Origin: an uncultured Methanosarcinales archaeon
Lineage (GTDB): Archaea > Nanobdellota > Nanobdellia > Woesearchaeales > CAYSVS01
Assembly (NCBI GenBank): GCA_964589485.1
Contig: CAZPRK010000007.1
Coordinates: 1 to 39,442, forward strand
Direction of reading: 5' to 3'
DNA: 39,442 bases
Numbering within the stretch: position 1 is the stretch's first letter; every line of letters starts with the position of its first letter. Below the pieces are notes generated by a model that saw only the letters and a program-made list of their open reading frames with translations, ran no database searches and was not told the origin of the DNA. Positions 31,469-38,765 of this stretch are shown piece by piece. A program made the translations under genes and the position numbers.

Positions 31469-33097
31469 TCACTTACTTCTTCTTTGTTTCCTATTATTTG
31501 ATTTACCTTTAGAAAAAGATTTATTTTCTCTAAAGCCTTTCTTATCAGGTTTATTTGAATCTCTATTGGAACCTCTATAAGAATTTCTTTTATTACTATT
31601 AAAACTTCTATCTTCAGAATCTCTTCCGGATCTTGAATCTCTGCTAGAGCTTCTTCCTGAACGAGAATTTCTATCAGAATCTCTTCTTCTGAAATTTCTA
31701 CCATCAGAGTTACTTCTTCTCTCTTTACCCCTATAACCTCTTTTTGAGTTCCTTAAAGAACTTCTTTCACTAGATGATGTAGGTTCAGAAATATCTTTAT
31801 ATAAATCTAAATTAAGTTGATCTTTGAAACAATATTTTAAAACTGCAGAAACTATTCTAGTTGAGTCATTCCCTTTTAATAGCTCTTCAGCCATCGCGTC
31901 ATACTTTTTACTTTTACTTTTTTCAATAATATCTGCTAATATAGTTTTAATATGTGATTCCTTATGAGCTATTATCTCTTTAGCTGAAGGTAACTTAGCT
32001 TTTGTCAATTTACATTTATTTATTCTTTCAACAAAATTTAATTTTCTTTTCTCAGATGGAATTACAAAAGTTATAGAAATTCCTTTCTTACCTGCTCTTC
32101 CAGTTCTTCCAATTCGATGTATGTAAGATTCAGGACTTTGTGGCAAAGAATAATTAATAACATGAGTTAAATCATTTACATCTATACCCCTTGCTGCTAC
32201 ATCTGTTGCTATAAGTATTGTTACTGTCTTTTTTCTAAATTGCAATAATATTTTTTCTCTTTGTGCTTGAGTAATATCTCCATGTAATGCTGCAACTTTA
32301 TAATCCATTCTAGATAATTGAGCAATTAAAGTATCTACATTCATTTTGGTATTGCAAAATATTATACCATAAAAGTCATCATAATAATCAATAATTCTTC
32401 TTAATGCATCTAATTTATCTTTTTGATTAATGTCATAATAAATCTGTTCAATAGAATCTAAAGTTAAGTGAGATTTTTCAGCTTCAACAAAATCATATTC
32501 CTTCATATATTTTTTAGCGATATCCATTATTTGTTTAGGCATAGTTGCGGAAAATAATAACATATGTTTTTCTTCAGGTGTACTTTGTAGAATTAATTTA
32601 ATATCTTCTTCAAAACCCATATTTAGCATTTCATCTGCTTCATCTAATACAACATATTGAACTTTATCAATTTTCAAACTTTTTCTTTTTAATAAATCTA
32701 TAACTCTTCCTGGAGTTCCGACTACTATATCTACGCCCTTTTTTAACTTTTGAATTTGTTGCATAATAGGAGCTCCACCGTATACTGCTAAAACTTTAAC
32801 ATTCCTATCTCCAACTAAAGATTCAATTTCAAGTGAAACTTGTAATGCTAATTCCCTAGTAGGAGTTAAAATAATAGCTTGAGTTCCCTTACTTCTATCT
32901 CTAAGATTATCCAATATTGGAATACCAAAACTAACTGTTTTTCCTGTTCCAGTCTGACTCTTTCCAACAATATCTTTTTTTCCTTTCAAAAGTAAAGGAA
33001 TAACTTGACTTTGAATACTTGTTGGTAAAGTGAAACCTTTTTTCTCTATAGCTTTAAATGATTCTTCAGATATACCTAATTTCTTAAATTCTTCCAT
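31469..33097 (-). CDS. DEAD-box RNA helicase (DeaD/CshA-like) with R/S/D-rich tail
   Basis: Q motif, QTGTGKT, PTRELA, GTPGR, DEAD, SAT, ARGID, HRIGRTGRAG. Confidence 0.95.
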   Translation of the reverse strand: MEEFKKLGISEESFKAIEKKGFTLPTSIQSQVIPLLLKGKKDIVGKSQTGTGKTVSFGIPILDNLRDRSKGTQAIILTPTRELALQVSLEIESLVGDRNVKVLAVYGGAPIMQQIQKLKKGVDIVVGTPGRVIDLLKRKSLKIDKVQYVVLDEADEMLNMGFEEDIKLILQSTPEEKHMLLFSATMPKQIMDIAKKYMKEYDFVEAEKSHLTLDSIEQIYYDINQKDKLDALRRIIDYYDDFYGIIFCNTKMNVDTLIAQLSRMDYKVAALHGDITQAQREKILLQFRKKTVTILIATDVAARGIDVNDLTHVINYSLPQSPESYIHRIGRTGRAGKKGISITFVIPSEKRKLNFVERINKCKLTKAKLPSAKEIIAHKESHIKTILADIIEKSKSKKYDAMAEELLKGNDSTRIVSAVLKYCFKDQLNLDLYKDISEPTSSSERSSLRNSKRGYRGKERRSNSDGRNFRRRDSDRNSRSGRSSSRDSRSGRDSEDRSFNSNKRNSYRGSNRDSNKPDKKGFRENKSFSKGKSNNRKQRRSK

Positions 33098-37852: not shown

Positions 37853-38557
37853 TTAATTAAGCTTAGATTCTTGTTCATTTAATATTTCTAATTTTTGTTT
37901 AATTTCAGAAGCATAATTTGAACCCTTAAACTCCTTTTCAGCAATTTCTTGAGCCCTTGAAAGAATAAACTTTGCTTTATCTCTATGACCATCTTGCAAC
38001 AAAATATCTGAAAAATTAATGCAAGATATTACTCCTATTTCAGAACTTATTTCTGCTTTATATAAAATTTTTTCATATTTATGACCTGCATTTTTCCAAT
38101 ATTTTTGTGCTTCAGGTGTATTTCCCATCAAAGTATAAATCTCACTTAATTTTCTACTTGCTATTGCTTCTATTAAATTCATATTATCTTGCAAATGAGT
38201 AGGGTTAGCAATAGGAATATATTCTTTAAATCCCTCTTTTGCTAATTCTTCATATAATCTACCATTAGTAATATTACCAATATTATTAATTGTTGCTATA
38301 GATTTTTTTAGATAATTAATAGATTCAGGCATATTACCAGTTTCTCTTAAATTTTCTCCTATATCAGAATATAAACTTGCTAAACCTATTTGCATAAAAA
38401 TACTATTAGGAACTTCATCCAATACTTTGTTAAGATCTCTTTCAGCTTTTTTTGCAAATGCAAAATATGTATCAGGTGAACTTTCTACAGCTTTAGCATC
38501 ACTAATACTTTTTCTAGCAGATGTTACTAAATTTTCTAAATCCATTTTCTTCATCAA
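37853..38557 (-). CDS. TPR-like alpha-helical protein
   Basis: LASLYSDIG..ESINYLKKS; LSEIYTLMGNTPEAQKYWKNA patterns. Confidence 0.65.
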   Translation of the reverse strand: MMKKMDLENLVTSARKSISDAKAVESSPDTYFAFAKKAERDLNKVLDEVPNSIFMQIGLASLYSDIGENLRETGNMPESINYLKKSIATINNIGNITNGRLYEELAKEGFKEYIPIANPTHLQDNMNLIEAIASRKLSEIYTLMGNTPEAQKYWKNAGHKYEKILYKAEISSEIGVISCINFSDILLQDGHRDKAKFILSRAQEIAEKEFKGSNYASEIKQKLEILNEQESKLN

Positions 38558-38583
38558 TATGTGTATAATAAAATAAAATAAAA

Positions 38584-38675
38584 AGCCTCTGGGGAGATTT
38601 GAACTCCCGACCTGTCGCTTTCTTAGATCATAAGATCATACTAGGCGACCGCTATAGCCACTAAGCCACAGAGGC
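38584..38675 (-). tRNA. tRNA-Thr(AGT) with 19-nt intron at 37/38
   Basis: Minus strand GCCTCTG TG GCTTAGTGGCTATAGC G GTCGC CT AGT A [TGATCTTATGATCTAAGAA] A GCGAC AGGTC GGGAG TTCAAAT CTCCC CAGAGGC T; perfect acceptor, anticodon and T stems; U73; no CCA. Confidence 0.9.
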
Positions 38676-38765
38676 AACGATACCAAGAAATTTAACTTTG
38701 TTTAATAAAGTTTTGGGTAATTCTATCCATAAAGCTTATAAATCAAATCAAAAAACAAATGAATT

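Follow-up and report, generated by a model that had tools for sequence, protein, structure and literature searches.

A 92-nt gene near the end of a 39,442-nt archaeal contig (the window, meaning the whole stretch of DNA analysed; coordinates without a contig label are positions in it) probably encodes a functional, spliced fourth isoacceptor of tRNA-Thr, with the anticodon AGU and an unmodified adenosine at wobble position 34 that would serve the codon ACU. We give this reading, which was built from sequence comparisons, a probability of roughly 0.6. The source genome (G000; 1.16 Mb, 27% GC, 99.9% complete) is that of a marine DPANN archaeon from a Woesearchaeota-type order. Passages in PMC8007984 state that archaea have neither ANN anticodons nor an A34 deaminase, and parts of PMC11066159 and PMC8879553 also describe ANN anticodons as absent from archaea, in line with the premise of the original prediction made from this stretch. 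A survey summarized in part of bioRxiv 10.64898/2026.05.15.725136 lists 3 tRNA_ANN among 10,517 archaeal tRNAs of 220 GtRNAdb genomes. Full-text searching of the literature turned up no report of A34 tRNAs from DPANN archaea or Woesearchaeota.

The gene matches Rfam RF00005 on the minus strand (38675-38584; 55.1 bits, gathering 29, E 2.4e-09), and the alignment places a 23-nt insertion in its anticodon loop. Direct reading gives acceptor (GCCUCUG/CAGAGGC) and anticodon (GUCGC/GCGAC) stems, a D arm, a T arm (GGGAG-UUCAAAU-CUCCC), a variable loop AGGUC and U73; CCA is not encoded at the 3' end. The 26 nt between the anticodon-stem strands comprise C32, U33, A34, G35, U36 and A37, a 19-nt intron, and A38. 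After removal of those 19 nt in silico at 37/38, ARAGORN calls a 73-nt tRNA-Thr(agt), and the register of the anticodon is fixed by homologues that lack an intron and have the 7-nt loop CUAGUAA. The original prediction of an intron-containing archaeal tRNA-Thr with an AGU anticodon, a 19-nt intron at 37/38 and this same loop was thus borne out by the Rfam match, by ARAGORN and by homologues. It had been conceivable that a different intron position would yield another anticodon, but the intronless homologues fix AGU. With the GUCGC/GCGAC stem, every single-intron placement yields A34-G35 (AGU or AGA), and a Ser (AGA) identity is excluded because the variable loop is only 5 nt. The names that ARAGORN gives to the unspliced gene, Leu(tag) and Ser(aga) i(34,19), are ruled out by the short variable loop and the intronless homologues. 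One coordinate needed correcting: A34 had been placed at 38643, which is U33, and lies instead at 38642 (t on the plus strand).

In archaea, G1-C72, C2-G71, C3-G70 and U73, together with G35 and U36, are presumed identity features for ThrRS. The gene has G35 and U36 as well as G1-C72, C2-G71, C3-G70 and U73, which are common to the other Thr tRNAs of the source genome; G1-C72, C2-G71 and U73 had already been singled out as Thr-compatible. Upstream, AAAACTTTATTAAA is a putative promoter, and the T run that follows the gene a putative terminator (Table 1). A AAAACTTTATAAAT-type motif is present at a comparable distance upstream of other tRNA genes in the genome, and T runs follow other tRNA genes too.

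Table 1 Coordinates of the tRNA-Thr(AGU) gene, its parts and the other threonine tRNA genes of the source genome (G000)
Feature	Position	Strand	Basis
tRNA-Thr(AGU) gene, 92 nt including intron	38584..38675	minus	Rfam RF00005; ARAGORN after in-silico splicing; homologues in 33 genomes
5' exon, tRNA positions 1-37	38639..38675	minus	direct reading, register as in intronless homologues
Anticodon: A34 (38642), G35 (38641), U36 (38640)	38640..38642	minus	direct reading; homologues; contigs of three runs
19-nt intron UGAUCUUAUGAUCUAAGAA at 37/38, GAUC/GAUC hairpin; UAAG opposite C32-G35, one A.A mismatch	38620..38638	minus	direct reading, folding, homologues
3' exon, positions 38-73: A38, stem GCGAC, variable loop AGGUC, T arm, acceptor, U73	38584..38619	minus	
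Promoter-like AAAACTTTATTAAA (BRE/TATA-like), about -39 to -26 from tRNA position 1	38701..38714	minus	inferred
Five-T run directly 3' of U73, likely transcription stop	38579..38583	minus	inferred
Thr(UGU), introns of 16 nt near 31/32 and 15 nt at 37/38	G000 C1:240673-240776	minus	T-arm/acceptor scan
Thr(CGU)	G000 C14:15071-15143		
Thr(GGU), 13-nt intron	G000 C15:23378-23462		

All four ACN anticodons (AGU, CGU, GGU and UGU) are encoded in the source genome. Neither ARAGORN nor the Rfam-based genome scan picked up the two-intron Thr(UGU) gene, which came to light in a custom scan for a T arm with a matching acceptor stem; 38 nt separate its stem strands GCAGA/UCUGC, and ARAGORN calls the spliced form Thr(tgt). 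As UGU, CGU and GGU genes are all present, AGU is an extra, fourth isoacceptor rather than a mutated UGU gene. We considered, and dropped on finding the two-intron gene, the idea that AGU had replaced UGU in this genome. Standard tRNA finders call for caution in these genomes, where they overlook or mislabel many genes: ARAGORN reported 25 tRNA genes in this 99.9% complete genome and the Rfam-based scan 22, and introns led ARAGORN to label Thr(GGU) or Ser(GCU) as 'Phe aaa' and what looks like Arg(UCG) as 'SeC tca'. Across 850 long open reading frames, the 16,625 Thr codons divide into 8,950 ACU (54%), 6,600 ACA (40%), 621 ACC (4%) and 454 ACG (3%), so that the ACU-rich, AT-biased coding originally supposed is indeed found.

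To assess how widely the gene occurs, we scanned genomes of the order for a Thr-type 3' half combined with the loop CUAGUA. Raw matches were obtained in 42 of 401 genomes; 15 of these were left out, as their matches fell only in the D loop (UUAGUA) or were random, leaving 27 true AGU-bearing genomes spread over 14 of about 136 families. In a second sample, also of 401 genomes (by row count, about 278 from the same order and 123 from other orders of the class), there were 23 true matches among the same-order genomes, six of them new, for a union of 33 genomes. The pattern was found in none of the 123 genomes from other orders, where a single match proved spurious. These genome counts are lower bounds because the pattern is restrictive: it accepts a gene only if the ends are GCC/GGCU, position 32 is C32, the variable loop has the form ARRUC and no intron exceeds 30 nt. 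In one genus (g80, family f80), AGU was present in 8 of the 10 genomes of one sample. The pattern scan did not detect the gene in G001, a 96%-complete genome from the same genus as the source. The TPR protein that flanks the gene (37853-38557) had no match in G001 or in the congeneric G002.

A pattern scan of the whole collection returned at least 120 stretches, a figure that does not amount to a global count. Among the 80 matches listed, four were true AGU tRNAs (L115, L144, L155 and L190); the remaining listed matches were other Thr tRNAs picked up through the D loop, tRNA-like ends of apparent tmRNA genes, a lone 3' half, or chance. Some other contigs with the same kind of gene are titled 'Candidatus Woesearchaeota archaeon' or 'Candidatus Nanoarchaeia archaeon', titles from which the group name used here partly derives. 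The 10-kb contig of L115 is titled Alphaproteobacteria bacterium and carries an archaeal-type Thr(AGU) whose body is nearly identical to Woesearchaeota-type genes; it is probably mis-binned or mislabelled. At a locus in another genome (L273, G365:C23:12770-12910; 141 nt examined), the AGU loop and 3' half are not preceded directly by a recognisable 5' half, and there may be a further intron near 30/31 or a split gene. AGU and GGU genes lie about 15-230 nt apart, at 50-64/73 identity, in five genomes (L003, L265, L270, L271 and L272, from G024, G333, G168, G261 and G369, respectively).

We compared exons to trace the origin of the gene. The AGU exons of the source are identical at 55-56 of 73 positions to each of their paralogues (GGU, CGU and UGU), compared with 70 of 73 to the AGU gene of G024, which belongs to another family; identity to five of six other AGU genes compared is 61-65/73, and to that of G220 58/73. 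The closer match across families argues that the A34 lineage is old: either it was in place before the families separated, or it was passed from one family to another. Thr genes do switch anticodons or undergo gene conversion, as a difference of only 2/73 between the AGU and CGU genes of G024 indicates. A G34-to-A34 mutation of a GGU gene is an unlikely origin, as AGU genes have C32, like UGU and CGU, and all GGU genes have U32, with identities of 50-64/73. The U34-to-A34 change originally proposed does not hold up either: the source genome has its own Thr(UGU), the AGU lineage is old, and the base opposite position 34 in the intron varies among homologues.

The last of these points concerns the splicing substrate. 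The original description of the BHB proved exact, with an outer GAUC/GAUC helix and a central helix of C32-G, U33-A, an A34xA mismatch and G35-U; two 3-nt bulges flank the central helix. Eight AGU genes carry an intron, with a common 3' end ..AG-AA (..AG-UA in one). Among these, the C32-G and U33-A pairs are kept in all eight and G35.U in six, with A (G245) or G (G366) opposite G35 in the others; the base opposite A34 is A in four, G in two, C in one and U, a true pair, in one (G135). Introns of CGU genes in relatives share the same 3' end, with A or C opposite C34 (G366, G237, L009 and L012). Introns of UGU genes (G000, G011, G237 and G245) end in CAAGCA and form a perfect helix. Given the mismatch opposite position 34 in CGU introns and the variable base in AGU introns, we consider the mismatch a trait of the intron family and not a trace of a former U34.

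In the source AGU gene the geometry is that of two 3-nt bulges with a 4-bp helix between them, broken by the A.A mismatch, and the strict BHB fold is not favoured: it has an energy of -6.1 kcal/mol against -10.5 kcal/mol for the MFE fold, a difference of 4.4 kcal/mol, and all that the MFE fold retains is the anticodon stem plus the GAUC hairpin. As modelled, the substrate in the pre-tRNA is a relaxed BHB. Relaxed-BHB pre-tRNA introns of archaea described in parts of PMC4090602 and PMC5829648 resemble it in their position at 37/38, their solid outer helices and their two 3-nt bulges, and in the presence of an endonuclease gene. It differs from the relaxed BHBs in those portions of the two reviews in that the central 4-bp helix is broken at the wobble base, which is unpaired in seven of the eight intron-bearing AGU genes. 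The source genome encodes a splicing endonuclease (PF01974, 99.3 bits; a 175-aa open reading frame, C1:113103-113363, L280:1261-1788). A second subunit was not found with PF01974, and the sole gene found specifies a single 175-aa alpha-type unit. The single alpha-type form of the enzyme is associated with narrow specificity. Other tRNA genes of the source are interrupted at non-canonical sites, which include the D loop, the vicinity of 31/32 and the T-arm region; with one endonuclease unit and introns at several such sites, a broad specificity is suggested, and the relaxed endonuclease invoked in the original prediction is plausible.

We then examined whether A34 is likely to be edited. A search for TadA/ADAT, suggested at the outset, found none in the source genome, where the best NF008113 scores were 13.9-16 bits against a cut-off of 150. 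Two proteins matched the Pfam cytidine/deoxycytidylate deaminase model. One, of 228 aa, has a 70-aa N-terminal extension and scores as a ComEB/dCMP deaminase (106 bits, versus 16 bits for TadA); the other, of 162 aa, is a cytidine deaminase (TIGR01354, 125 bits). The gene for this cytidine deaminase (C5:19675-20207) has a tRNA-Ser(GCU) gene with an intron about 100 nt away, a proximity that is probably a coincidence. Across the 27 AGU-bearing genomes of the first sample, none reached the 150-bit cut-off for NF008113, and 19 had no match at E<=0.001, including the source and G220 (99% complete, 3 contigs), G090 (100%) and G151 (98%). Matches of 40-87 bits in six of the 27 were to generic COG0590-type deaminases. 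The best of these, at 87 bits, is a 151-aa generic nucleoside deaminase in G002, a genome with 5% contamination, and is as close to guanosine/deoxycytidine deaminases as to TadA. With no consistent deaminase partner, plain adenosine is the likeliest state of A34, and we consider it most likely that the base stays unmodified. The genomic setting of unmodified A34 in Mollicutes, namely an AGU gene, no TadA found and AT-rich, ACU-biased coding, is present in the source genome.

The foremost alternative is that A34 is deaminated or otherwise modified by an enzyme unseen by TadA/ADAT models, giving an IGU anticodon that would read ACU, ACC and ACA. Its main attraction lies in the distribution of GGU genes, which the pattern detects in 7 of the 27 AGU-bearing genomes, often right beside AGU, compared with 53 of 96 genomes without AGU (101-genome sample). 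When five f26 and f80 genomes were searched by BLAST with a GGU gene, the only full-length matches were their AGU genes, and in G220 GGU was not seen among the 31 of 37 Rfam matches read, which included AGU, UGU and CGU. Such a pattern resembles the loss of G34 tRNAs in I34 systems, yet the signal is soft, as the GGU pattern detects only about 55% even in genomes without AGU. The absence of a G34 isoacceptor that characterizes I34 systems is also not seen in the source genome, which, like six other genomes, keeps GGU beside AGU, an unusual arrangement for an I34 system. The generic deaminase in G002 means that editing is possible in some genomes, and an unrelated enzyme would be invisible to the models used. 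Set against the failure of all 27 genomes to reach the TadA cut-off and the lack of any match at E<=0.001 in 19, the generic deaminases in six genomes leave an inosine at A34 unlikely. Narrower, and more doubtful again, is the proposal that A34 becomes inosine or another modified base through an enzyme unrelated to TadA/ADAT, one candidate being the N-terminally extended dCMP-deaminase-like protein of the source genome, which scores as a ComEB/dCMP deaminase. If true, an unrelated A34 enzyme would be the first source of wobble inosine in archaea, an independent invention of I34 decoding, and would explain why GGU was not found in two families.

Under our preferred reading of an unmodified A34, the gene would be transcribed from its own BRE/TATA-like promoter, and the 19-nt intron would be excised at 37/38 by the endonuclease of the source organism from a relaxed BHB with solid pairing confined to its two outer helices. 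ThrRS would charge the product through G1-C72, C2-G71, U73 and G35-U36, as common to the paralogues. Because no TadA/ADAT-type deaminase appears to be encoded, A34 would remain adenosine and pair in Watson-Crick fashion with ACU, the commonest Thr codon, with tRNA-Thr(GGU) alongside reading ACC and ACU. The composition of the anticodon loop is consistent with such a role: C32/A38 is found in every AGU gene and U32/A38 in every GGU gene of the order examined, which matches the rule, set out in part of PMC7293025, that links the 32-38 pair to weak A34 versus strong G34 tRNAs. A34 may have assumed the role of G34 in families f26 and f80.

A second A34 tRNA occurs in the same order. The genome G220 encodes a tRNA-Leu(AAG) (L249, G220:C1:41071-41154), confirmed by ARAGORN, and loop plus 3'-half matches provide six further candidates (G056:C3:12018, G078:C33:50991, G318:C22:11350, G382:C39:6657, G362:C1:57130 and G391:C85:1205). 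Five of the seven genomes belong to f26 or f80, the families that also have Thr(AGU); the exceptions are G056 (f55) and G078 (f77).

Less probable than editing is that the gene is a tolerated, near-neutral or decaying Thr duplicate with little or no role in translation. In the source genome AGU is formally redundant, as GGU can read ACU, and this redundancy, the disfavoured strict BHB and the absence of AGU from the scan of the congeneric G001, all of which count against a functional gene, fit such a duplicate, as do the patchy spread over about 14 of 136 families and the ease of anticodon switching suggested by the 2/73 difference in G024. Conservation of the gene argues otherwise. The gene was examined over its full length for 13 of the 33 genomes and four named contigs; in these 17 full AGU genes the acceptor, anticodon and T stems show canonical pairing in 289 of 289 cells, with two-sided (compensatory) changes at 9 of the 17 stem pairs and an invariant CUAGUA..A loop. 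Intact stems maintained by compensatory change in many families, the kept promoter-like motif and T run, a lineage older than the family splits and the presence of AGU in 8 of 10 g80 genomes speak against a decaying duplicate.

The remaining alternative, that the DNA was misread or misassembled or that the contig is non-archaeal contamination, is already close to refuted: the source is a metagenome-assembled genome with a depth of about 4-10 in the runs examined, but contigs of three runs have the same base at 38642, 32 other genomes have the identical anticodon, the contig is 39 kb of dense coding sequence at a uniform 24-29% GC, and the gene has an archaeal-type intron, U73 and a promoter-like motif resembling other tRNA genes of the source. 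Over 38450-38668/38675, the Logan contigs of runs X1, X3 and X4 differ at 0-1 letters, and none lists a variant at 38642, so at low depth these contigs agree with AGU; X1 is possibly the source run, and X3 and X4 may share campaigns with the source. A base-call error, one of the explanations first offered for A34, is rejected. A search for related loci with a 715-aa protein returned no relative. Elsewhere in the window (31469-33097, minus strand), a 542-aa DEAD-box helicase has mostly bacterial best relatives (Bacteroidota, Spirochaetota and others, 41-55% identity), which hints at a bacterial origin for that gene.

In eukaryotes, tRNA-Thr(AGU) is edited to IGU by ADAT2/ADAT3. The archaeal genes are unlike that system in having no ADAT/TadA above cut-off, in the coexistence of GGU in the source genome and in a different tRNA body and discriminator. 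They do share with the eukaryotic genes, as treated in part of PMC7293025, an AGU anticodon in a C32/A38 context rather than the U32/A38 of G34 tRNAs. The precedents are bacterial. In Mollicutes (Mycoplasma capricolum and others; Andachi 1987 and Inagaki 1995, cited in PMC11066159), passages of that article describe a tRNA-Thr with the same anticodon in small, AT-rich genomes without TadA, where plain-A34 decoding is the expected mode; the Mycoplasma tRNA, named in the original prediction, too, as unmodified at A34, is reported there to decode ACU, ACC and ACG. The Mollicutes gene is intronless and part of a minimal tRNA set, whereas the archaeal gene has a presumably protein-spliced intron and, in the source genome, stands beside GGU, UGU and CGU. 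According to parts of bioRxiv 10.64898/2026.05.15.725136, Thr-AGT and Leu-AAG are the commonest non-ACG ANN genes in bacteria, and thrT-AGT is functional in E. coli. In Leuconostocaceae/Lactobacillales, Thr(AGU) and Leu(AAG) replace GNN genes (sections of PMC8007984 and of bioRxiv 10.64898/2026.05.15.725136), and the same two anticodons recur in the archaeal order, with a similar replacement suggested by the failure to find GGU in the f26 and f80 genomes searched. Lactobacillales, as portrayed in those sections, have TadA for tRNA-Arg(ACG), whereas the archaea keep Arg(GCG), seen in G220, and TadA was not found in 19 of 27.

Plain-A34 tRNA-Thr(AGU) in Mollicutes and GNN-to-ANN replacement in Lactobacillales are thus of an already known kind; what seems to be new is a conserved A34 tRNA-Thr lineage of an archaeal order, one with an intron that is presumably spliced out and with no TadA alongside. 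One DPANN order keeps Thr(AGU) in at least 33 genomes under structural constraint, mostly without a TadA-like gene, and Leu(AAG) in at least one. These archaea offer a natural system for asking why unmodified A34 is almost universally avoided, and raise the question of whether life with an AT-rich, reduced genome relaxes that avoidance, as in Mollicutes.
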